Positions 1 through 39,623 of a DNA stretch of 64,000 nucleotides are shown here, piece by piece. The position numbers and the translations under genes are program-made. The DNA is from Bdellovibrionota bacterium (GTDB lineage Bacteria; Bdellovibrionota_G; JALEGL01; JAGRMV01). Within the stretch, counting starts at the first letter, position 1, and every line of letters starts with the position of its first letter. The notes beneath the pieces were generated by a model, which saw only the letters and a program-made list of their open reading frames with translations, was not told the DNA's origin and ran no database searches. The DNA lies in assembly GCA_041391365.1 (NCBI GenBank), contig JAWKOC010000001.1:514068-578067 (forward strand), in the 5' to 3' direction.

Positions 1-171
1 CAGTCTGTCAAGACCTACAAGGGTCTTGTCAACCATATGATATATCATGATGAGGATCACATCAAACAACATGCAATCGAAGGCATTTCCAAACTTAGAC
101 AATCTTCGGAGGGGCAAGAAGGACTCAAGGCATTTTTGGAAAAGCGAAAACCATCATGGATCAAATCATGA
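1..171 (+). CDS. enoyl-CoA hydratase/crotonase-family protein, 3' end only (gene starts upstream of the window); probably methylglutaconyl-CoA hydratase of a leucine-catabolic cluster
   Basis: Frame 1 is open from base 1 and ends ...EGQEGLKAFLEKRKPSWIKS-stop (TGA 169-171). The EG..AF.EKR.P.W tail is the usual crotonase C-terminus. The stop overlaps ATG 168 of the next gene (ATGA). Confidence 0.55.
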   Translation, partial: QSVKTYKGLVNHMIYHDEDHIKQHAIEGISKLRQSSEGQEGLKAFLEKRKPSWIKS

Positions 172-14834: not shown

Positions 14835-15506
14835 TTAGGTCCGGTTGGATGGTTGGATTTGATTTTTGTTGGAAGATGACTGAGTTTTTTTTCGAGGCGC
14901 AATATGAATGGGAAGACCCAGAGTCGTTTCTGCGGTTTCCATCATGATTTCTCCAAGGGTTGGATGAGGATGTACCGTAAGAGCAATATCATCAACAACC
15001 GCCCCCATTTCAATGGCCAAACTTGCTTCACTGATCAAGTCGGAGGCATGTGCACCAATGATATGAACGCCCAATACTTTTCGTGACGATTTTTCAGCAA
15101 TCATTTTGACAAATCCTTCACTGGAATTGGTCGACAAAGCTCTTCCCAAAGCAACAAAGGGAAACTTTCCAGTGATGTAGTCAATGTTTTGTTCTTTGGC
15201 TTGCTCTTCACTGATTCCTACAGAGGCGACTTCGGGGTCTGTAAAGATCGCTCCGGGCATCGCGCGTACATCATAGAGAGTTTCATGTCCTGCGATGTTT
15301 TCTGCGGCAATGATTCCTTGTTTGGATGCGCGGTGAGCAAGAAGGGGACCTCCAGTAACGTCGCCGATTGCATAAATGTGTGAAACATTGGTTTGCATCT
15401 TGTCATTGACGGAAATCTTTCCTTTCTCTACGGTCACACCTGCTTTTTCAGCGCTGACAACATCTGCATAAGGTCTTCGCCCAACGGCGAGAAGAATCTT
15501 TCGCAA
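14835..15506 (-). CDS. lpdA: dihydrolipoyl dehydrogenase (E3), C-terminal fragment (frame break at 15499-15501)
   Basis: KILLAVGRRP, IYAIGDV, and the interface-domain HPHPTLGE motif. Joins ...TISCE of the N-fragment if the A3 run (minus strand) is A4. Confidence 0.85.
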   Translation of the reverse strand: MRKILLAVGRRPYADVVSAEKAGVTVEKGKISVNDKMQTNVSHIYAIGDVTGGPLLAHRASKQGIIAAENIAGHETLYDVRAMPGAIFTDPEVASVGISEEQAKEQNIDYITGKFPFVALGRALSTNSSEGFVKMIAEKSSRKVLGVHIIGAHASDLISEASLAIEMGAVVDDIALTVHPHPTLGEIMMETAETTLGLPIHIAPRKKTQSSSNKNQIQPSNRT

Positions 15507-16300
15507 GAAATGGTTTTTGCTCCGTCTTTGGTTTCCACACTCAACTCAATTCCATGCGAGGTTTTTTTGTAGGAAGAGGCTTTGGAAGATAAGTACAAAT
15601 CCAATCCTTTTTTCTTAGCAATTCTGCCCAGCTCTTTTGCAACTTCTTGATCCACACCTGGAAGCAACTGATCCGTCAACTCAATGATCGAGACTTTGGC
15701 CCCTAGTTTTTTGTAAAGCATGCCGATTTCTAAACCGATCACGCCACCACCAATGACCGCAAGTGCATCAGGAACTTTTGTCCAATCCAATGCTTCCCTA
15801 GAATCAAATACAGACGTTCCATCGATGGCAAACCCAGGAATCTCTATGGTTTTTGAACCGCACGCAATGACGGCTTGCTCAAATTCGATCAAATAGTTTT
15901 TTCCATTTCCCGTTTGAACTTCTACCGCATTGGAAGACACAAAATGCGCTTGGCCTTTAAAAATTTGTCCACCTGAGTTTTTTACCAATCCTGCAATGCC
16001 GCTGGTAAGTTTTTCGATCACAGATTTTTTCCATGCTTGTGTTTTGGCAAGATCGATGGAAACTTCTTTGCAAGATAGTCCCATTTCAGAGGATGATTGC
16101 ATGTTTTCATAGGTTTTGGCGGCATGGATCAAAGCCTTGGAGGGAATGCATCCCCAATTCAAACAAACACCTCCCATGTTATCTTTGTCAATCAGGGCAA
16201 CTTGTTTTCCCAATTGCCCCAAGCGAATGGCAGCCACATATCCACCGGGACCGGCTCCAATGACAACAACTTGTTTAGAAATTTTTTCTGTTTGAACCAT
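15434..16300 (-). CDS. lpdA: dihydrolipoyl dehydrogenase (E3), N-terminal fragment
   Basis: VVVIGAGPGGYVAAIR, redox centre GGVCLNWGCIPSK, second Rossmann VIGGGVIGLE. Confidence 0.85.
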   Translation of the reverse strand: MVQTEKISKQVVVIGAGPGGYVAAIRLGQLGKQVALIDKDNMGGVCLNWGCIPSKALIHAAKTYENMQSSSEMGLSCKEVSIDLAKTQAWKKSVIEKLTSGIAGLVKNSGGQIFKGQAHFVSSNAVEVQTGNGKNYLIEFEQAVIACGSKTIEIPGFAIDGTSVFDSREALDWTKVPDALAVIGGGVIGLEIGMLYKKLGAKVSIIELTDQLLPGVDQEVAKELGRIAKKKGLDLYLSSKASSYKKTSHGIELSVETKDGAKTISCERFFSPLGEDLMQMLSALKKQV

Positions 16301-16321: not shown

Positions 16322-18472
16322 TTAGAGTAGAAGACTTGCTGGAGTTTCAAGATAACTGATCAAAGCTTTGGTGAATTTGGCTCCCAAAGCACCATCTACG
16401 ACACGATGATCAATCGACACTGACACATTGGCCATTTGCCGTGCTACGATTTCACCATTGCGTACAACCGGACGTTCTTTGATGGCGTAAAAGCCCAGAA
16501 TTCCAACCTGAGGATAGTTGATGATCGGTGTTGCGTAGGTGCCCGCCAATGTTCCCAAACTGGTGATGGTGAAGGTTCCACCTTGCAAATCGTTGGGAGA
16601 AAGTTTTCCTTCTTGCGCTTTTTTGGCAAGAGATGAAATGTTTTGCGCAATTTCGAGCAGCCCCATTTGATCTGCATTATGAATAACAGGAACGACCAGG
16701 TCTTCATCTTTGGTCGCAACAGCAATGCCAATGTTATAATAATGTTTAACAACAATTTCACCTTGCTCTTCGTCCAAACTTGCATTGAGCATGGGGTACT
16801 GCTTCAATGCTGCACAAAGTGATTTTACCAAAAAGGGTAGATAGCTAAGTTTGATTCCCTGATCTTGGGCCAACTCTTTCAAGGCATTTCGTGCATCCAC
16901 CAAACCTGTTGCATCCAACTCATCCATGTGGGAAAAATGCGCAGCATGATCGACGGATTTCCGCATATTTTGTGCAATTACTTTTCGAATTCCTTTGAGG
17001 GGAATTCGTTCTTCATGTTGAACCGTATTTTTTGAGGTTGATCCCGTGGATGACGATGATCCTGTGACATGTTGCTTAACATCTTCCAAGGTCACACGAC
17101 CGTGATCTCCCGTTGCACGAACTTCGTTCAAATCAATTCCCTTTTCTCTGGCCAATTTGCGTGTGTAGGGGGAGGCCAGAATAGAGGACGCATCCGCAGG
17201 GGAATGCCCGTTGACCATGGGTTGAATGGGAGAGGAAAAAACAGGTTTCACATCTTTGGGTGCAGAAGATGACGCTGGCGCAGATACGCGCTCAGTTTGA
17301 TTTTTTTCTGAAGTGGTTTGAGAAGAATCACTGGATCCTGTTTGAATCAGTGCAAGTGGTGCTCCAACTTTTACGTTTTCGCCAGAGGCACCAAACGTTT
17401 TTTCAATGACTCCTTTTTTGGGTGAAGCAATTTCTACCGTGGCCTTGTCGGTCATGACTTCTACAATGGGCTGATCTTCCTCCACGGAATCGCCTTGGCC
17501 TACCAGCCATTGTACGATTTCTCCCTCTGATACGCCTTCTCCAATGTCCGGTAATTTGAACTCATACGCCATGCAACAGTTCCCTTCTGATTGTGTGTTT
17601 CGAGATCGAATCATGGAAGAAATATAATATTCTCCAGCACGATACGAACTACGTACCAATGGCCCTGAGGCCACATACGAAAAGCCATAGCTTACTGCCA
17701 GGTCTTTCCATTCTTCAAACTTTTTTGGTGAAATAAATTCGATCACTTTGTGATGCTTTTGACTGGGTTGAAGATATTGACCGATGGTCAAAAAATCTAC
17801 CCCCGCACTTCGTAAATCCTGAAAAGCTTCTTTGAGTTCTTGTTCTGTTTCGCCTAGACCTACCATGATGGAAGATTTCGTATACTGAGTCGGATTTTTT
17901 GCTTTGCAGTACGAGAGAACATTCAGAGATTTTTTGTATCCAGATCGTTGATCTCGAATGGATCGAGTCAATCGCTCTACAACTTCTATGTTGTGAGCCA
18001 ACACTTCTGGACGGGATTCCAAGAGTCGATCGAGCGCGGATGGATCTGCATTGAAGTCTGGAATGAGTGCTTCTACCAATACTCCCGGACATTTTTCATG
18101 AATCACTTGGATGGTTTTTGCAAAATGAGATGATCCGAAATCAGGTAAGTCATCTCGATCCACGGAAGTCAGGACTACATACTCAAGACCCATCAGTGCA
18201 ACCGTTTGGGCTGACTTTTCAGGTTCATTTTCGTCGGGAGGAAGAGACGGGATCCCACTTTTTACCGCACAAAATCGACATCCACGTGTGCAGGTATCTC
18301 CCATGAGCATGAGGGTCGCTGTACCGCCTGACCAGCATTCTGCAATGTTTGGGCATTTGGCTTCTTCACATACGGTGTGAAGATTGCGGGATCGGAGCAT
18401 CGACGAAATTTCTTTGTATTTTTCCCCGGAAGGAAGTCGAACTTTGATCCAGTCTGGTTTGGCTTGTCTCAC
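16322..18472 (-). CDS. single 716-codon ORF: lipoyl synthase (residues 1-300, 17573-18472) running in frame into dihydrolipoamide acyltransferase E2 (residues 301-716, ATG 17572)
   Basis: LipA part: CEEAKCPNIAECW, radical-SAM CTRGCRFCAV, VRSSYRAGEYY. E2 part: MAYEFKLPDIGEG, lipoyl-lysine MTDKA, PSBD ASPYTRKLAREKGIDL, catalytic DHRVVDG. No stop codon between them. GAAGGGAA lies 8 nt before the E2 ATG. Confidence 0.8.
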   Translation of the reverse strand: MRQAKPDWIKVRLPSGEKYKEISSMLRSRNLHTVCEEAKCPNIAECWSGGTATLMLMGDTCTRGCRFCAVKSGIPSLPPDENEPEKSAQTVALMGLEYVVLTSVDRDDLPDFGSSHFAKTIQVIHEKCPGVLVEALIPDFNADPSALDRLLESRPEVLAHNIEVVERLTRSIRDQRSGYKKSLNVLSYCKAKNPTQYTKSSIMVGLGETEQELKEAFQDLRSAGVDFLTIGQYLQPSQKHHKVIEFISPKKFEEWKDLAVSYGFSYVASGPLVRSSYRAGEYYISSMIRSRNTQSEGNCCMAYEFKLPDIGEGVSEGEIVQWLVGQGDSVEEDQPIVEVMTDKATVEIASPKKGVIEKTFGASGENVKVGAPLALIQTGSSDSSQTTSEKNQTERVSAPASSSAPKDVKPVFSSPIQPMVNGHSPADASSILASPYTRKLAREKGIDLNEVRATGDHGRVTLEDVKQHVTGSSSSTGSTSKNTVQHEERIPLKGIRKVIAQNMRKSVDHAAHFSHMDELDATGLVDARNALKELAQDQGIKLSYLPFLVKSLCAALKQYPMLNASLDEEQGEIVVKHYYNIGIAVATKDEDLVVPVIHNADQMGLLEIAQNISSLAKKAQEGKLSPNDLQGGTFTITSLGTLAGTYATPIINYPQVGILGFYAIKERPVVRNGEIVARQMANVSVSIDHRVVDGALGAKFTKALISYLETPASLLL

Positions 18473-18531: not shown

Positions 18532-19662
18532 TTATTTGGATGGGGCCAACTGGATGGGTTGGGCTACGCAGACCTGGTTTTTGCCCAGTTCCTTGGCTTT
18601 GTACATCGCGACATCCGCAGCTTGAAGAAATAGATTTTTTCTTTTCTTGATGTCTCCCATTTGGGGAACGTGGTCATGAAGCGATGCCAAGCCAATGCTG
18701 GCTGAAAGCACCCCCTTGAAATTGATGAATGAGCCTTCTAGGTCGCTGTTTTCAATCATGAACATTTTTTGATGAATTTTTTCTCGGGTGAGGCTTGCTA
18801 CTTGAATGGCTTGTTCAAGAGGTACACCCGGCAAAATGGCGCAAAACTCGTCCCCACCATATCGAGCCAAAGTGGCCGAAGACACTCGAATGGATTCTCG
18901 TAAGATGATGCTCACTTCTCTTAGGGTTTGAGACCCCACCAAATGTCCATGATGGTCGTTGATGCTTTTGAAATGATCCAAATCCATAAAAAAAAGAATC
19001 AAGGGGGTTTGATGGGTTTCAGCTTCTTGAATGTCGACCAAAAGTCTCTCATGAAAATATCGATCATTGAAAAGTCCAGTAAGGTGATCTCGCTTGGTCA
19101 TCTCGCGATTTTTCTTGGAGTCGATTGCATTCTGCAAGGACATGCTCAAAAAGCCACTGACAATTTCTGTGAGCTTGTGGTCACGAAGCGTAAATCCAAG
19201 AGGATCTTTCTTGTTGAAAATCGCCAACACTCCCACGGCGGTTTTTCCGAGGGTGATGGGGTAGGTCAATGCACTCTGACAGCTTTTTGGAAGATGGATT
19301 TTGTCCATGATCAAGGGAGGTTCATAGGCTGACCCTTTGAGAATTTGAGACTTGTTGAGCGAATAACTCTCTCCAATCACACCTTGATTGCTGATGGTTT
19401 TCATCCCAATCAATGGCGTAACAGGAATTCCCAAACCAGCAATATAGATCAGATTGCGAGCCCCGGAAGAATCCTCCATGGGTGCGTTTGGATCATCAAT
19501 GAGCAACACAAGGCCTTCTGCAGGAATAAAACTGGCCAAGTCTGTGAGCAATTTGACAATCGTATGCTGCAATTCAACTTCTTCGTTGGAAGATGTTGTT
19601 TTTCGTAATCGATTGAAATATTGGCTGAGTTGTTCGGGTTCTACACACCGACACGATAGCAT
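18532..19662 (-). CDS. GAF-domain diguanylate cyclase (GGDEF)
   Basis: DHLTGLFNDRYF, DLDHFKSINDHHGH, active-site RYGGDEFCAIL. The N-terminal ~190 residues are GAF-like. Confidence 0.9.
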   Translation of the reverse strand: MLSCRCVEPEQLSQYFNRLRKTTSSNEEVELQHTIVKLLTDLASFIPAEGLVLLIDDPNAPMEDSSGARNLIYIAGLGIPVTPLIGMKTISNQGVIGESYSLNKSQILKGSAYEPPLIMDKIHLPKSCQSALTYPITLGKTAVGVLAIFNKKDPLGFTLRDHKLTEIVSGFLSMSLQNAIDSKKNREMTKRDHLTGLFNDRYFHERLLVDIQEAETHQTPLILFFMDLDHFKSINDHHGHLVGSQTLREVSIILRESIRVSSATLARYGGDEFCAILPGVPLEQAIQVASLTREKIHQKMFMIENSDLEGSFINFKGVLSASIGLASLHDHVPQMGDIKKRKNLFLQAADVAMYKAKELGKNQVCVAQPIQLAPSK

Positions 19663-25308: not shown

Positions 25309-25776
25309 ATGATTGAAAAGGGACAACATTTTCCAACTTTTTCATTGCCCAATCAAGACGGTGTATGGATCACCAATCAAGACCACGCAGGAAAATGGGC
25401 TGTGTTTTTTCTTTATCCCAAAGATGATACCCCCGGTTGTACCCTAGAAAGCCAAGCTTTTTCCGCCAGAAAAAAGGATTTCGATGCTTTGAATGTTTGC
25501 GTGTATGGACTTAGTCAAGATTCGGTTTCCTCTCATCAGGCATTTTGCAAAAAATACAGCCTCGCAACGCAGATGTTGTCCGATGAAAACCAGGAACTTC
25601 TCAAAGCTCTGGATTTGGGACAAAGTCAATGGAAAGGACAATCTTTTTGGGATCGCACCACGGTTGTGGTCAATCCCCAGGGAAACATTCAAACGATTTA
25701 TAAAAATGTAGATCCACGTGGTCATGAGTTGCAGGTATTGCAAGACATCCAACGATGGATGGGAGAACGATCATGA
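25309..25776 (+). CDS. bcp: thioredoxin-dependent peroxiredoxin Bcp
   Basis: FFLYPKDDTPGCTLE peroxidatic-Cys motif; 155 aa. Confidence 0.9.
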   Translation: MIEKGQHFPTFSLPNQDGVWITNQDHAGKWAVFFLYPKDDTPGCTLESQAFSARKKDFDALNVCVYGLSQDSVSSHQAFCKKYSLATQMLSDENQELLKALDLGQSQWKGQSFWDRTTVVVNPQGNIQTIYKNVDPRGHELQVLQDIQRWMGERS

Positions 25777-27344
25777 AACAAAGTCGAAAAGAGTTTTTGC
25801 AATTTTTGGGAATGGGATCTCTAACCTTATCCACGACTTCATTGTGGGCCATGAGCAAAAAGCCTGCAGGAATTGTAGGGCTGAGCCCAGGCATGGCTTC
25901 TGACAATGTGGTCTTGGTTCCAGGTCTTTCGTATGAAAAACTGATTTCATGGGGCGATTCCATTTCCGAGGATGGAAAACTTCGTTTCGGATTCAACAAT
26001 GACTACACAGCTTTGTTGGAAAATTCTTCTACACCTTCACAAGCGTATTTGTGGGTCAACCATGAGTATCCAGATCCTGTTTTTCTGGAAACCAAAAAAC
26101 CCAACAAAACGAAAGCAGACATTGAAAAAGAAATGAAAAATGTTGGAGGAAGTTTTCTTGAACTACGCCGCGCCTCCGGAAAGTGGAGTGTTGTCACGGA
26201 TTCCTCCAAAAACTTTCGTCTTGATGGTCAATCGAAAATTCCTTTTTCCAACGGTGAAAGCATCCAAGGATCTTCGGTAGCTATTGGAACGTTTGCCAAT
26301 TGTGCCGGTGGAAAAACGCCTTGGGGTAGCGTTTTAACCTGCGAAGAAAATTATCAAGACTATTATGGAGATGTTGATGATCAAGGACAGATCATCGAAA
26401 AAGGATATTTGGGTTGGTCAACCTATCAACAACGTCCTCCTCAACATTATGGTTGGGTGGTGGAAATTTTCCTTGAGAAAAAGCAGGCTGTAAAACATGT
26501 TGGACTCGGACGCTTCTCTCATGAATGTGCAACGGTAACACGAGCCAAGGATGGTCGTGTGGTTGTATATTCGGGAGATGACAAAGCAGGAGAGTGTCTT
26601 TACAAGTTTGTTTCCGACAGTACGGATTCTTTGCATAAAGGAACCCTATATGTAGCCAATCTTGAACAGGGCAAGTGGATTGAAATCTCGTACAAAAAAT
26701 CCAAAGCCTTTCAAAAAATGTTTGCTACAGAACAAGATATGTTTTGCTACACACGAAAAGTTGCACACATTCTTGGAGGTACGCCTCTCGATCGTCCGGA
26801 AGACATCGAAATCATACCTGGAACAGCGAATGTGTTGGTAGCCTTGACCAACAACACAGGCAAAAAGAATTACTTTGGTTCACTGTTGAAAATCATCGAG
26901 AGCAATCAAGACGCAGCCTCAGAAACTTTTCAAAGTGAAACGTTTTTAACGGGAGGAGAAACCACAGGGTTTGCTTGTCCAGACAATCTTGCGTTTGATC
27001 CGAGAGGCAATCTTTGGTTCACCACGGACATCAGTGGCAACAAGATGAACAAAGATCCGTACACACCTTTTGGAAACAACGGATTGTTCGTGGTGTTAGC
27101 TCAAGGTCCTCAAAAAGGGCAGGCGATTCAAATGGCGAGTGCTCCATTTGATGCGGAATTTACCGGACCCACGTTTTCAGAAGATGGAAAAACATTGTTT
27201 TTGTCTGTGCAGCATCCAGGAGAAGAAACAAAAACCGTAAGCAAATTGACATCACATTGGCCAGATGGTGGAAGTTCTATTCCCAAACCATCTGTGATTG
27301 TGATTCAAGGACCAGCTTTGGAAGCCATCAGCGCGAAAAAATGA
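25773..27344 (+). CDS. PhoX-family (DUF839) secreted phosphatase-like protein
   Basis: Tat-like leader MKQSRKEFLQFLGMGSLTLS, then FANCAGGKTPWGSVLTCEEN, NHEY and PDNLAFD. ATGA overlap with the bcp stop. Confidence 0.8.
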   Translation: MKQSRKEFLQFLGMGSLTLSTTSLWAMSKKPAGIVGLSPGMASDNVVLVPGLSYEKLISWGDSISEDGKLRFGFNNDYTALLENSSTPSQAYLWVNHEYPDPVFLETKKPNKTKADIEKEMKNVGGSFLELRRASGKWSVVTDSSKNFRLDGQSKIPFSNGESIQGSSVAIGTFANCAGGKTPWGSVLTCEENYQDYYGDVDDQGQIIEKGYLGWSTYQQRPPQHYGWVVEIFLEKKQAVKHVGLGRFSHECATVTRAKDGRVVVYSGDDKAGECLYKFVSDSTDSLHKGTLYVANLEQGKWIEISYKKSKAFQKMFATEQDMFCYTRKVAHILGGTPLDRPEDIEIIPGTANVLVALTNNTGKKNYFGSLLKIIESNQDAASETFQSETFLTGGETTGFACPDNLAFDPRGNLWFTTDISGNKMNKDPYTPFGNNGLFVVLAQGPQKGQAIQMASAPFDAEFTGPTFSEDGKTLFLSVQHPGEETKTVSKLTSHWPDGGSSIPKPSVIVIQGPALEAISAKK

Positions 27345-27370: not shown

Positions 27371-27399
27371 TATCAAGAAATTGACTTTCCTGCAAACCG
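27371..27399 (+). promoter_or_regulatory. candidate sigma-70 promoter of the histone-fold gene
   Basis: TTGACT (27371-27376), 17-nt spacer, TAGATA (27394-27399). Lies about 90 nt upstream of ATG 27489. Confidence 0.45.
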
Positions 27400-27488
27400 T
27401 TGATAGATAGAGCTTCACATGGGGCTGGCAGGGCGCATGCCGCTGGAACCAGAACAGAAGAATTATTTACAATAGACTGGAGATCATC

Positions 27489-27674
27489 ATGAGCAAAACT
27501 GTATTAGTAGTAGCTTCGAAAGTAAAAACCTACATCAAAGAAGAAGGTGGCATGAACACCTCTGGTTCCGTTATGGACGCTTTGACAACTGAAGTAGAAA
27601 AGCTTTGCAAGCAAGCCATCGACAACGCCAAAAATGACGGCCGAAAAACCGTTATGGATCGCGATTTTCAGTAA
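27489..27674 (+). CDS. bacterial histone-fold protein (single histone fold, HBb/Bd0055-like)
   Basis: 61 aa with helix-loop-long helix-loop-helix spacing. GRKTVMDRDF matches the archaeal histone loop 2/helix 3 region (GRKTI..ED). GGAG lies 6 nt before the ATG, and the gene has its own promoter and terminator. Confidence 0.75.
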   Translation: MSKTVLVVASKVKTYIKEEGGMNTSGSVMDALTTEVEKLCKQAIDNAKNDGRKTVMDRDFQ

Positions 27675-27700
27675 AACAGATCCAGAAATAAATCGAAAAG

Positions 27701-27735
27701 CCCCGTATCTTTGATCAAGATCGGGGTTTTTTTTT
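27701..27735 (+). terminator. rho-independent terminator of the histone-fold gene
   Basis: CCCCG(T)ATCTT-TGATC-AAGATCGGGG stem-loop followed by a run of nine T. Confidence 0.85.
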
Positions 27736-27809
27736 GCGCGCCAATCGGTACAAAGCCCTTGACTCAAAGCGAAAAAATGATAGGTAACCTTCCATATTTG
27801 GGGGGAACG

Positions 27810-28388
27810 ATGGGGAAAGCAACGATCATTTTGGGAATCTATCTAGCCATTGGCGGAATCAGCCAAATCGCTCCAGCGTCAACAGAATCCGAGTTTAAAT
27901 CGATTTTTGCTGAGTCAGAATCCTGCCAACGTGCTTTTGGCAATCCGTACCGTGTAGACCATTGTATGATGAGAGCCAATCTTGGGGATTGGACCTACGA
28001 AATCGATCCTGATCATGCATTGCTTAGTTTGAAAGAGCGCACCGGCCTGGCGATTTTGATTTCTTTTCATGATCGAACCATAAGCACCCACTGCCCAATG
28101 GATAACGACCATTGCATAGGCATAGACTCAAAACTTTCATTTGACGAAATCAAAAATGAAACCGAAGATCTAAAAGCCATCTATGATGGAAGCTATGACC
28201 CTTGGGTCCCTATGCTTAACAAGCTCTGGATTTTTGGCCAAGCCGTTCGCCACGTGAGAGATGTCCAAGTGAATTTCAAAAACAGATATGAACCCAAGAT
28301 ATCCACCACCATCGAAAGCGCTTATGTACAAAACGTCAGTGCTTGCACATCAAATCTGCTAAACCTCCTCAATCCAGAACAGGACTAA
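27810..28388 (+). CDS. hypothetical secreted protein
   Basis: GGGGGGA Shine-Dalgarno before ATG 27810. MGKATIILGIYLAIGGISQIAPAS signal-like N-terminus. No family recognised. Confidence 0.5.
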   Translation: MGKATIILGIYLAIGGISQIAPASTESEFKSIFAESESCQRAFGNPYRVDHCMMRANLGDWTYEIDPDHALLSLKERTGLAILISFHDRTISTHCPMDNDHCIGIDSKLSFDEIKNETEDLKAIYDGSYDPWVPMLNKLWIFGQAVRHVRDVQVNFKNRYEPKISTTIESAYVQNVSACTSNLLNLLNPEQD

Positions 28389-31820: not shown

Positions 31821-33518
31821 GTGATTAAGCTTCCATTTGCCATCGGCCCCTATACGTTGATTTATCCTCTTGGCGAGGGTGGATTGGCTTCTGTCTATCT
31901 TGGGGTAAAAGACAAAAAAACCTATGCCATCAAAGTTCTTAAATTTGATCGTTTGATGGAGCACAGTGCTGTTCTGAATTTTGTACGAGAAGCAAAGATT
32001 GGCCAGAAAATGCAACACCCTTCTTTTACGAGAGTGATTGATCATGGCAAAGCGCAAATGGCAGGAATGGACGATGTCTACTTCATTGTCATGGATTTGA
32101 TTCTTGGAATCAACGTCCAAGAAATGTTGAACTATTTTGAAAATAGTCAGCAAACCATGCCACTGCCCATGAAGTTATACATTCTCAAGCAGGCATGTCA
32201 GTCCTTACGATATCTTCATGCATCAACCGTATTTGAATTTTCAGACTCCTATTTGTTCCATGGAGACATCTCACCCTCAAACTTGATGATTTCGGAGCAA
32301 GGATTTTTCAAGTTGATGGACTTGGGAAGTGCAAATCAAGAAAGTACAGTAGAGATGGCCAAACATCATTTTGGCAAATTGCAATACTTGCCTCCAGAGT
32401 TTTACGAGGACCATGCCGTTGCTCAAAAAATTGATTTGTACTCTTTGGCTGTGGTGGCCTATCAAATCTTTTTTCATGACATGCCCTTCAAAGGAAAGAA
32501 CAAAGAAGAACTGATCAAAAACATTCAAGAATCCAAATTACCGGCATTCAATTCAACTCCCTTGGTTTCAACCGAAAAAGGACAAAGAGCGTTGAAAGTT
32601 TTTTTTCAAACGGCTCTCAACAAAGATCCTCAGCAAAGATATAAAAATGTGAAAGAGTTTGAGAAAAGTTTGTTTTTGATTGAATTCAATGAACCCATCA
32701 TCACCTCATTTACGGAAGCAAATATTTTTTTGAAGAAGCATTTTGCCAATAAATTGAAGAAAATTGATCAAATTTGGTGTGATCAGCTGAATTTCTTTCA
32801 TTCGGTGGAAGGCAAAAAGAAAATTTATGGGAGTCGCGATGCAGTCATCACTCCCTTGGTCTTGCCAACGGACAAACGAAGACATCCACGTGTTTCCCTA
32901 GATCAGCGATATCCTGTTTCTGCACAGATGCAATTGCCTGACAAAAAATTCCCTTCATCTGTAAAAGTTCTTCAGTTGAGTCAAGGGGGCTTTTTGGCCG
33001 AATGGAAATTGCCCAAAATTGAGAGAGATACGAAACTCACCGCAGAATTGTTTTTTGATGGAAAAAAAGTCTCTTTATTGTGCAATGCTCTGTATTACTA
33101 CAAGAGCAAAGGCAAGATGTTCTATGGATTTCGTTTTGAAAACATTGATGAGGCTACCACCAAAGATTTGCGAAGATATGTGGACCGTATCATCAATGAA
33201 AATGCAGAAGAAGAAGACAAGGTTCTTACTCAAGAACATCGGCGACATCTTCATATCTACTATTCCAGTGAAGATATGCTCAAAAAAGAAATCGAAACCA
33301 ACATTCTCAAAGGACGAACCTTGATCATCAGTCCTTATGAGTTTCCACAAAACTCAAATGTCATTCTACATGTCAATTTGGACAAAACATTCAGAAAACT
33401 GATCATTCCTGCCAAAGTCGTGGCTTGTTACAAAGAGTCCGAGGACAAAGGTTATCGTATTGGTTTGCAAATCGAGCAAAATGAACACTTGAGCGAAGTA
33501 GTAAAAGTGTTTTTTTAG
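31821..33518 (+). CDS. Ser/Thr protein kinase-like domain fused to a PilZ domain (plus a second degenerate PilZ-like domain)
   Basis: Kinase part: GEGGLASVY, AIKVLK, HGDISPSNL, DLG, PPE, DLYSLAVV. PilZ part: RRHPR ... LSQGG. GTG start. Confidence 0.8.
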   Translation: MIKLPFAIGPYTLIYPLGEGGLASVYLGVKDKKTYAIKVLKFDRLMEHSAVLNFVREAKIGQKMQHPSFTRVIDHGKAQMAGMDDVYFIVMDLILGINVQEMLNYFENSQQTMPLPMKLYILKQACQSLRYLHASTVFEFSDSYLFHGDISPSNLMISEQGFFKLMDLGSANQESTVEMAKHHFGKLQYLPPEFYEDHAVAQKIDLYSLAVVAYQIFFHDMPFKGKNKEELIKNIQESKLPAFNSTPLVSTEKGQRALKVFFQTALNKDPQQRYKNVKEFEKSLFLIEFNEPIITSFTEANIFLKKHFANKLKKIDQIWCDQLNFFHSVEGKKKIYGSRDAVITPLVLPTDKRRHPRVSLDQRYPVSAQMQLPDKKFPSSVKVLQLSQGGFLAEWKLPKIERDTKLTAELFFDGKKVSLLCNALYYYKSKGKMFYGFRFENIDEATTKDLRRYVDRIINENAEEEDKVLTQEHRRHLHIYYSSEDMLKKEIETNILKGRTLIISPYEFPQNSNVILHVNLDKTFRKLIIPAKVVACYKESEDKGYRIGLQIEQNEHLSEVVKVFF

Positions 33519-37418: not shown

Positions 37419-39623
37419 ATGAGTACGACACATTCAGCAGAAAAATTTGGAATGATACGAGGGGTATTTATTCCCAGTATCCTCACCATTTTTGGTGTGA
37501 TCATGTATCTGCGCCTGGGGTGGATGCTCTTCCATGTAGGTATTTTGGGAAGCATCATTGTGATTACCCTTTCAAGTTTGATCACATTTTTAACCTCTCT
37601 ATCGATTGCGGCCACAGCCACAAACATGAGAGTGGGTGCGGGAGGCGCATACTATATGATTTCAAGATCCTTCGGCATCGAGGCGGGCGCAGCCATTGGT
37701 ATTCCTTTGTTTCTTGCCCAGGCTTTGGGAGTTGCGTTCTACATTACAGGTTTTGCAGAATCCCTGACCTTGATTTTTCCCCATTTGCCCATGACGTGGA
37801 TCAGCGTGGGGACTCTTATCGTGTTGACCGTGGTTACATTGATTTCGGCCGATCTAACATTGAAATTGCAGACTTTTATCTTTACCGTCATTGCGGCTTC
37901 TATGGTTTCATTTTATTTTGGTCATCCCCTTTCTCCTGACGAAATTTCTGCTTCTACCGGTCCCATTGCGCCCGTGTCATTTTGGTCCGTCTTCGCCGTC
38001 ATTTTTCCAGCGGTTACAGGAATCGAAGCCGGTCTCTCTATGTCTGGTGAGCTCAAAGATCCCGGAAAAGCCCTACCCTATGGAACGATTGCAGCCGTAT
38101 TGGTTGGGTATGTGATTTACATCAGCATTCCGTTTTGTTTGCATTTTTGGGTCCCAAAAGCCATTCTTGCAGAGCGATTTTTCGTCATGAAGGATGTCGC
38201 AATGATTGGAATTCTGATTATTTTTGGAATCTGGGGTTCTACCTTGTCCAGTGCGGTGGGTGCTTTGATGGGGGCACCTCGGACGCTGCAGGCTTTGGCC
38301 AAAGATCGAATTGTTTTTGGATTTTTTGGAACCTCAAGTGGTCCCAAACAGTTGCCCATACGAGCCACAATTTTTGCGGCCCTTGTGGCCATGGGTACAT
38401 TGTTTTTGGGAAGTCTGAACAGTATTGCAACCGTACTCACCATGTTCTTTCTTACTTCCTATGGATTTTTAAACATTGCAGCTTGTATTGAATCCTTGAT
38501 GGGCAATCCATCGTGGAGGCCAAGTTTCAAAACCCATTGGCTCGTATCATTTGTGGGTGCACTGGCTTGTTTGTTCACCATGTTGATGATTGACTCGGGT
38601 GCAACCATCATTGCCACGATCTTTGTGCTCTGCATTTATGTGATCACGAAAAAACGACAACTCGGACAGAGTTGGTCAGATACACGAAGAGGCATCTTGC
38701 AGTCAGTAGCTCGTTACTCCATTTATCATTTGTCTCAATACAAACCTGATGCACGAACCTGGAGTCCAAATGTACTTGTGTTTAGCGGGTCACCTCAAAA
38801 ACGTTGGAAATTGGTGCAACTTGGACATTCTCTCACCAGAAAAAGAGACTTTTTGACTGTGGGGAGCATCATCGATCAGGAAAATGTCGATCAATCTCGC
38901 AAATTCGCCATGGAGAAATCCATTCGTGAGTTTTTGGATAAAAATGGTGTATCTGGACTTGCCGAAGTGCATTTTTCTAAGGAAATGTCTCAAGGTGCAC
39001 GAGCTATGGTATCCAACTATGGTCTAGGAACGCTCAAACCCAATGTTGTTTTGATTGGAATCAACAAGAATCGAGATGAACGCGCACGGTACGTAGAGCT
39101 TTTGATGGATATTCACCGGATGAACAAAAATTTGGTGATCTATCGTGATCAGGGGGACGAAACCATCAATTATTCTTACCCCTGGTCAGACTATGTAGGG
39201 AGCATCGATGTATGGTGGGGTCGACGTCATCAAAACGCAAATCTGATGCTGGCCTTGTCCTATATTCTTTTTCAGCAATCGCGAAGCAAATCGCCTCTCA
39301 TCACTCTCAAGTCGGCCATTTTGTCGGATGATGAAGAGGAATCTGCGGTGCAAAGTTTAGATAGTCTCATTGAAAAAGGTCGACTGAAAATTTCGAGAAA
39401 AATTTATAAATTGGCCAGCGATCAAAACTATTTTGACGTCATGTCTCATCACTCTGAAAAGACGGAGTTGGTCTTTATTGGATTGAGACCTCCAGAAGGC
39501 GATGAATCCGTGGAACATTACAGCGAATATTTTGGACGGCTTCTCAAACTTACTCAATCTTTGCCCAAGGTTTGCATGGTGTTGGCTTCCGAAGAAATCC
39601 AATTCAAGGAGATTTTTCAGTGA
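37419..39623 (+). CDS. SLC12-like cation-chloride cotransporter / APC-superfamily permease with large C-terminal domain
   Basis: GMIRGVFIPSILTIFGVIMYLRLGWMLFHVG opening typical of the CCC family. 12 TM helices plus a ~290-residue cytoplasmic domain. Confidence 0.8.
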   Translation: MSTTHSAEKFGMIRGVFIPSILTIFGVIMYLRLGWMLFHVGILGSIIVITLSSLITFLTSLSIAATATNMRVGAGGAYYMISRSFGIEAGAAIGIPLFLAQALGVAFYITGFAESLTLIFPHLPMTWISVGTLIVLTVVTLISADLTLKLQTFIFTVIAASMVSFYFGHPLSPDEISASTGPIAPVSFWSVFAVIFPAVTGIEAGLSMSGELKDPGKALPYGTIAAVLVGYVIYISIPFCLHFWVPKAILAERFFVMKDVAMIGILIIFGIWGSTLSSAVGALMGAPRTLQALAKDRIVFGFFGTSSGPKQLPIRATIFAALVAMGTLFLGSLNSIATVLTMFFLTSYGFLNIAACIESLMGNPSWRPSFKTHWLVSFVGALACLFTMLMIDSGATIIATIFVLCIYVITKKRQLGQSWSDTRRGILQSVARYSIYHLSQYKPDARTWSPNVLVFSGSPQKRWKLVQLGHSLTRKRDFLTVGSIIDQENVDQSRKFAMEKSIREFLDKNGVSGLAEVHFSKEMSQGARAMVSNYGLGTLKPNVVLIGINKNRDERARYVELLMDIHRMNKNLVIYRDQGDETINYSYPWSDYVGSIDVWWGRRHQNANLMLALSYILFQQSRSKSPLITLKSAILSDDEEESAVQSLDSLIEKGRLKISRKIYKLASDQNYFDVMSHHSEKTELVFIGLRPPEGDESVEHYSEYFGRLLKLTQSLPKVCMVLASEEIQFKEIFQ

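Follow-up and report, generated by a model that had tools for sequence, protein, structure and literature searches.

Histone-fold nucleoid proteins have been characterized in only a few bacteria, as was correctly stated in an earlier note on the locus described here, though the family as such has already been surveyed (Hocher et al., 2023; PMC10627809). The reference protein is Bd0055, also named HBb, from Bdellovibrio bacteriovorus HD100 (PDB 8fvx, 8fw7, 8cmp, 9ezz, and 9f0e), which Schwab et al. (2024; PMC11390915) place among the "bacterial dimer" histones. Bd0055 is localized to the nucleoid, has abundance rank 12th of 2125 proteins, and is probably essential (PMC10627809; PMC11317129). 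The ten top DNA-contact residues of HBb are N22, R57, S9, T53, T8, S24, K10, K12, K52, and K16 (Hu et al., 2024; PMC11317129).

Several other described systems are available for comparison. HLp from Leptospira perolatii (PDB 9qt0-9qt2) and the archaeal protein HTkC from Thermococcus (PDB 9f2c) share the alpha3-truncated fold class and the short alpha2 with the protein described here. The archaeal histones HMfB and HTkA (PDB 1A7W and 5T5K) are more distant; HMfB forms tetramers or hypernucleosomes around which DNA is wrapped. HU and IHF are functional analogues, being small and abundant dimers which bind DNA nonspecifically and bend it, as Hu et al. (2024) propose for HBb. They have no relationship in sequence or fold to the histone described here.

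The DNA analyzed is a 64 kb stretch (hereafter: the window) with a G+C content of 42.3%. On its forward strand, an ORF begins with ATG at position 27489 and terminates with TAA at 27672-27674 (CDS 27489..27674 including the stop codon). It codes for a protein of 61 residues, MSKTVLVVASKVKTYIKEEGGMNTSGSVMDALTTEVEKLCKQAIDNAKNDGRKTVMDRDFQ, and the product quoted in the earlier note is an exact match to this translation. Based on the ORF, on homology, on a structure model, and on the substitution pattern, we annotate it as an HBb/Bd0055-type bacterial histone. The identical protein is present in GenBank under accession MEZ4704098.1 (locus tag R3A11_02695) from a metagenome-assembled genome (MAG) of the Bdellovibrionota, on a contig of 736,629 bp, and is annotated there as "hypothetical protein."

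The closest relative for which DNA could be compared is the orthologous locus from genome GCA_020434365.1, here referred to as L081. The histone encoded there shows 92-93% identity to the window protein. At the codon level, the two genes differ by 25 synonymous and 5 non-synonymous changes, and the nucleotide differences at codon positions 1/2/3 amount to 5/2/29, with 29 of 36 thus being in the third position. This codon-position pattern rules out that the ORF is spurious and indicates that it is real and under purifying selection. An ORF of 87 residues which overlaps on the minus strand (27504..27767) was also considered; according to the same 5/2/29 pattern, it is not the coding frame and is ruled out as a real gene.

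The window and L081 have the gene order RmuC-PhoX-histone in common, and the neighborhood consists of housekeeping genes. The histone gene of the window does not share an operon with a partner gene. An additional gene for an AhpC/TSA peroxiredoxin lies between RmuC and PhoX in the window and is absent at the otherwise syntenic L081. The PhoX alkaline phosphatase ORF (25755..27344, forward strand) has a 22-nt overlap with the end of the preceding peroxiredoxin gene (region 25309..27344). The N-terminus of PhoX, SRKEFLQFLGMGSLTLS, resembles a Tat-type signal which has RK instead of RR.

When the single sequence was compared to the PDB using phmmer, Bd0055/HBb from Bdellovibrio bacteriovorus was the best match (8fvx/8cmp, E-value 3.5e-15). 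It was followed by HLp (9qt0, 7e-7) and HTkC (9f2c, 2.4e-5), with archaeal histones reaching an E-value of about 0.03. By BLASTP, the protein shows 57% sequence identity to Bd0055 over 56 residues, without a gap. A family profile, built from 54 members (alignment A1), found seven sequences in the PDB, all of which are histones, the E-values being 5.5e-25 for HBb (8cmp), 2.6e-12 for HLp, 7.7e-10 for HTkC, 4.6e-6 for HmvA, and about 5e-4 for archaeal histone A. The earlier suggestion of a likely new family member close to Bd0055/HBb is thus borne out by the 57% identity and by the profile match.

The curated models remain below their thresholds for this protein. Pfam PF00808 scores 17.9 bits, which is below its cut-off of 21.4, and the NCBIfam model archaea_histone (NF043032) scores 23.6 bits, the cut-off being 50. 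Only families of the histone clan were encountered in Pfam and NCBIfam, and an additional domain was not detected there. The profile search against the histone clan of Pfam, which the earlier note had proposed as a check, thus stays below the PF00808 threshold; the family profile, run against the PDB, finds only histones. That the curated models remain below threshold may be why MEZ4704098.1 is labeled as "hypothetical" in GenBank.

A single-chain AlphaFold2 model based on alignment A1 has a mean pLDDT of 83.7 and predicts helices at residues 3-20 and 28-49, followed by a one-turn helix at 55-57. A single histone fold had been proposed from the sequence, with a short helix, a loop, a long central helix, a GRKTV loop, and a further short helix, and the model agrees with this assignment (helix 3-20, loop, helix 28-49, GRKTV loop, helix 55-57). 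A comparison of the predicted structure with Bd0055 had also been proposed. In the Foldseek search against the PDB, the top ranks were taken by entries of HBb (probability 1.00, 56% identity), followed by HLp and HTkC, with the histone folds of MHF/CENP proteins at lower ranks. HBb is thus at the top by phmmer, by the family profile, and by Foldseek. With E-values of 0.06, the Foldseek matches are weak; the monomer model has an rmsd of 6.5 Å to HBb and of 2.2 Å to HLp. An rmsd of 6.5 Å to HBb is expected because the chain of 61 residues was modeled without its dimer partner. We consider the Foldseek result as corroboration of the predicted fold, not as strong evidence by itself.

Sequences of Bd0055 and HMfB served for the residue comparison. 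Residues 3-59 of this Bd0055 sequence agree with the PDB alignment, and residue numbers cited in the published papers fit for both proteins (S9, K10, S45, A48, and I61 for Bd0055; R19, H49, and T54 for HMfB). Invariant among 54 homologues are S10, K11, K13, T24, the R52-K53-T54-V55 stretch which represents the RKTV motif of loop L2, and D57-R58-D59. The S-K motif which opens alpha1 corresponds to S10-K11, and the lysines K11, K13, and K17 are all present. R52 and D59 form the RD clamp, and D50, the Asp two residues before the clamp Arg, is equivalent to D49 of HBb. Alpha2 has a predicted length of 22 residues and shows a gap of four alignment columns when compared to HMfB, as does that of Bd0055. 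Alpha3 is truncated to the predicted helix at 55-57, and the chain ends at Q61, with nothing beyond DRDFQ. In the column of the sprocket arginine (HMfB R19), the window protein has N23, and in that of the tetramerization histidine (HMfB H49), it has N49. The features of bacterial dimer and singlet histones were taken from Hocher et al. (2023; PMC10627809) and Schwab et al. (2024; PMC11390915). As judged from the sequence, all hallmarks of the "bacterial dimer" (alpha3-truncated) histones are present.

The similarity to Bd0055 extends to the equal length of alpha2, to the motifs S-K, MNTS, D-G-RKTVM, and RD, to the single-domain architecture, and to the absence of both the tetramer-position His and the sprocket Arg from either protein. 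The source organisms belong to the same phylum. Of the ten DNA-contact residues listed above for HBb, nine recur unchanged in the window protein. The remaining one, T8, is replaced by A9, and alanine is the family consensus at this position in the 54-member alignment. The proteins also differ in length (61 residues in the window, 64 in Bd0055), with the N-terminus of the window protein being one residue longer. Further differences are N46 and N49 in the window protein versus S45 and A48 in Bd0055. The C-terminal tail VIDHL of Bd0055, which packs on alpha2 of the partner subunit, is absent from the window protein, which ends one residue after DRDF. Many family members likewise end just after DRDF. 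Because the VIDHL tail is absent and Ala replaces T8, details of the assembly may differ from those of Bd0055.

The earlier note described the gene as preceded by a near-consensus promoter, TTGACT-17-TAGATA. The elements and their spacing are indeed present, but "near-consensus" is an overstatement. The putative -35 hexamer TTGACT (27381..27386, forward strand) has five of six consensus matches. It is followed, after a spacer of 17 nt, by the candidate -10 hexamer TAGATA (27404-27409), which has only three of six matches to TATAAT and lacks the final T. A TG at 27401-27402 extends the latter to TGnTAGATA, a candidate extended -10 element (TGaTAGATA, 27401..27409, forward strand). A consensus promoter scan did not call this promoter, the reason being that the -10 hexamer matches at only three positions and is devoid of the last T.

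Conservation provides better support than the consensus score. The block around the -35 hexamer, AAATTGACTTTCC (27378-27390), is identical at 13 of 13 positions between the window and L081. In both genomes, TGnTAG is found exactly 17 nt past the -35 element (TGATAGATA in the window, TGGTAGCTT in L081), and the L081 counterpart of the extended -10 element is TGgTAGCTT. We thus read the promoter best as the combination of a good -35 element and an extended -10 element (TGn) with a weak hexamer. The Shine-Dalgarno sequence GGAG is confirmed at 27479-27482 (forward strand), 6 nt upstream of the ATG. It is part of the block AGACTGGAGATCATCATG, which covers the ribosome binding site and the start codon and is identical at 18 of 18 positions in L081. 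The remaining upstream spacer shows only 37% sequence identity. This includes the 5′ leader of about 70-80 nt (27410..27478, forward strand), which is unconserved and predicted to be unstructured. Though this leader is G+C-rich, a structured RNA element is rejected, given a folding z-score of +0.12 versus shuffled sequences, the absence of an Rfam match, and the divergence in L081.

Beyond this pair of genomes, a pattern of the type TTGACN-16..18-TAnnn[TA] was encountered upstream of 4 of 70 family members, compared to 0.9% of random control segments; in this set, the start codons are uncertain and the phyla are mixed, which weakens the comparison. The description of the gene as "strongly signalled" therefore does not apply family-wide. 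Within the 64 kb window, the pattern TTGAC-N17..19-TAGNT has two matches, one upstream of the histone gene and one upstream of the next gene, with 1.0 expected by chance, so that this count is not significant alone. The next gene (27810..28388, forward strand) has no Pfam family and codes for a protein with a hydrophobic N-terminus. It is preceded by TTGACT-16-TAGGTA (27759..27787, forward strand) with a TGA just ahead of the -10 element, and thus has the same -35 hexamer and the same "TGATAG"-type -10 element as the histone promoter.

Downstream of the histone gene, RNA folding predicts an intrinsic terminator with a G+C-rich stem and a run of nine T (27701..27735, forward strand). The core of the hairpin (27701-27726) pairs CCCCG with CGGGG and ATCTT with AAGAT, resulting in 10 bp with one bulged U and a loop of 5 nt, and the nine T follow directly (27727-27735). 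The fold has -19 kcal/mol and a z-score of -2.9 versus dinucleotide shuffles. The "very strong terminator" with a 10-bp stem and T9 is thus supported by folding, except that the stem is interrupted by the one-base bulge. A simple terminator scan did not list this terminator, most likely because of the bulge. L081 likewise shows a hairpin and a subsequent T-run at this place, though the hairpin differs in sequence, as would be expected from a conserved terminator. A hairpin with a T-run is found downstream of 31 of 73 homologues. The term "monocistronic" used in the earlier note is an inference from the promoter and the terminator. Between the end of phoX at 27344 and the histone gene, a terminator was not seen, and read-through from upstream is therefore possible.

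Considering all this, we are confident that the gene codes for an orthologue of HBb/Bd0055, a "bacterial dimer" type member of the alpha3-truncated superfamily which would function as an abundant nucleoid protein. By homology to HBb, two chains would associate to a histone-fold homodimer, and this dimer would bind DNA irrespective of its sequence, gripping the backbone across the minor groove. The DNA contacts would be made by the L1-L2 loop pair, with N23 and T24/S25 from one loop and K53 and T54 from the other, the latter being held in place by the R52-D59 clamp and D50. R58 and the start of helix 1 (S10, K11, K13, and K17) may provide further contacts. The histone gene is probably driven by its own sigma-70-type promoter, in which a good -35 element is combined with an extended -10 element. 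Translation would start from a strong and conserved ribosome binding site, and the strong intrinsic terminator would end transcription. A high expression level would be in keeping with these signals. The histone would be an abundant protein of the nucleoid and would either bend DNA as a dimer (Hu et al., 2024) or coat straight DNA, with the dimers forming a sheath (Hocher et al., 2023). The binding mode of the reference protein is disputed between these two papers, and the window sequence favors neither bending nor coating.

The similarity of the loop 2/helix 3 region to archaeal HMf-type histones, which had been pointed out in the earlier note, raises the alternative of a nucleosomal histone, with tetramers around which DNA would be wrapped to give nucleosome-like or hypernucleosome particles. 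The GRKT(V/I) motif in L2 and the RD clamp are indeed common to both, as are the histone-fold topology and a Lys/Arg on helix 1 (K17 in the window protein versus the K13 region). There are also weak matches to archaeal histone A and HmvA (E-values of 0.03 for the single sequence and about 5e-4 to 5e-6 for the profile). HMf-type histones are distant, however, as seen from the E-value of about 0.03 and from the NCBIfam archaea_histone score of 23.6, with 50 as the cut-off. Sequence identity to HMfB is 25%. HMfB has an alpha2 which is four residues longer, a full three-turn alpha3, H49, and R19, and the window protein has a single turn of alpha3 before the chain ends, N49 instead of H49, and N23 instead of the sprocket R19, so that it is devoid of the parts needed for wrapping. 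With a short alpha2, a one-turn alpha3, no tetramer His, and no sprocket Arg, it should therefore not form nucleosome-like or hypernucleosome particles. For Bd0055, which is a much closer relative, FRET gave no indication of an approach of the DNA ends, and a modeled hypernucleosome falls apart (PMC10627809). We consider a nucleosomal histone as highly improbable. A face-to-face (FtF) alpha3-truncated histone like HLp, which would bridge or wrap DNA as a tetramer in the shape of a torus, is a further alternative. HLp is the second-best relative with a solved structure (9qt0; E-values of 7e-7 for the single sequence and 2.6e-12 for the profile), the Foldseek rmsd is 2.2 Å, and FtF histones occur in the class Bacteriovoracia of the Bdellovibrionota (PMC11390915). 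HLp and HTkC also resemble the window protein in that helix 1 starts with VASKVK, and in the clamp region (R-T-V ... D). Nevertheless, HBb is far closer (57% sequence identity versus about 44% for HLp, with values for HLp and HTkC being about 42-44%). In addition, the residues which make the FtF dimer-dimer contact are missing: R48/N52 of the FtF profile (PMC11390915), represented by R51/N55 in HLp, align to N46/D50 in the window protein. An FtF histone is thus very unlikely here.

The protein might also have a histone fold but serve another role, for example as a specific regulator or a protein-protein adaptor that is expressed at an ordinary level. The authors of the survey caution that histone-fold proteins need not all be global organizers (PMC11390915), and the weakness of the -10 element would fit with ordinary expression. 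On the other hand, the residues by which HBb contacts the DNA backbone are almost fully conserved, and there is neither an extra domain nor a partner gene in an operon. In DAP-seq, HBb itself shows binding throughout the genome that is not sequence-specific (PMC11317129). We therefore assign little probability to such a role. A variant of the orthologue reading is that the tail-less, A9-bearing form of 61 residues represents a sub-type with a different higher-order DNA assembly, for example one that forms no dimer-sheath filament, or one that has taken over the role of HU after the loss of HU. HU, IHF, Fis, Dps, and a second histone were not found by tblastn in the 64 kb window. We consider a distinct sub-type as unlikely. 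If it existed, a comparison with HBb could help to settle the dispute about bending versus coating.

A few other features of the window deserve mention. On the reverse strand, an uninterrupted ORF of 716 codons (16322..18472) covers lipoyl synthase and a complete E2 dihydrolipoamide acyltransferase. Its lipoyl synthase part has LIAS_N and Radical_SAM domains at residues 4-219 and is LipA-like up to about residue 300. The E2 part consists of a lipoyl domain (303-375), an E3-binding domain, and a catalytic domain (484-715). At the junction, the sequence is ...SEGNCC-MAYEFKLPDIGEG, and a stop codon does not occur ahead of the start of E2. Either the enzyme could truly be fused to the protein which is its substrate, or a stop codon could have been lost. 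The gene for the E3 dihydrolipoamide dehydrogenase (14835..16300, reverse strand) is split into two overlapping ORFs, the first of which (15434..16300) corresponds to positions 1-230 of the Pyr_redox_2 profile and the other (14835..15506) to positions 231-291 and the dimerization domain. This may be due to a frameshift, to an assembly error in the MAG, or to the gene being a pseudogene. A Ser/Thr protein kinase (31821..33518, forward strand) carries a PilZ (c-di-GMP-binding) domain C-terminal to its kinase domain (residues 351-455), and a GGDEF diguanylate cyclase gene (18532..19662, reverse strand) is present in the same window. A transporter of 734 residues (37419..39623, forward strand) has an amino-acid-permease domain and, at its C-terminus, a domain of the SLC12 (cation-chloride cotransporter) type. 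The whole 64 kb window contains no tRNA genes and no Rfam families at the gathering threshold.

Relatives of the histone are widespread. A word-indexed protein search revealed 1568 homologous clusters with E-values of at most 1e-3, and a scan of one genome per species showed relatives in at least 564 species genomes. Names of the Bdellovibrionota type, such as Bdellovibrionales, Bacteriovoracaceae, or Oligoflexia, are attached to 43 of the best 80 related loci. The other loci among these 80 are labeled as Myxococcota, Planctomycetota, Chlamydiota, Nitrospirota, "Deltaproteobacteria", or as unclassified. This spread over phyla agrees with the published distribution (PMC11390915; PMC11317129). 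The earlier note had taken the histone as a hint to the taxonomy of the source organism. The identical protein from a Bdellovibrionota MAG is in line with this, but by itself the gene is a hint and not a diagnostic marker, given that Bdellovibrionota-type labels are restricted to 43 of the best 80 loci.

As a homologue of Bd0055 is reported to occur in 67% of the Bdellovibrionota genomes (Hocher et al., 2023; PMC10627809), the presence of such a gene in the window is expected and not surprising. Published work already covers this family with respect to structure, abundance, and distribution in the Bdellovibrionota; the gene described here is an unannotated member of this family and does not raise a new question. 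The practical value is modest. The gene adds a naturally tail-less variant together with a footprinted set of promoter, ribosome binding site, and terminator, which is usable in comparative work or in work on the heterologous expression of histones. MEZ4704098.1 and many similar "hypothetical" proteins, which the curated Pfam and NCBIfam models miss at their cut-offs, deserve to be annotated as HBb-type histones.
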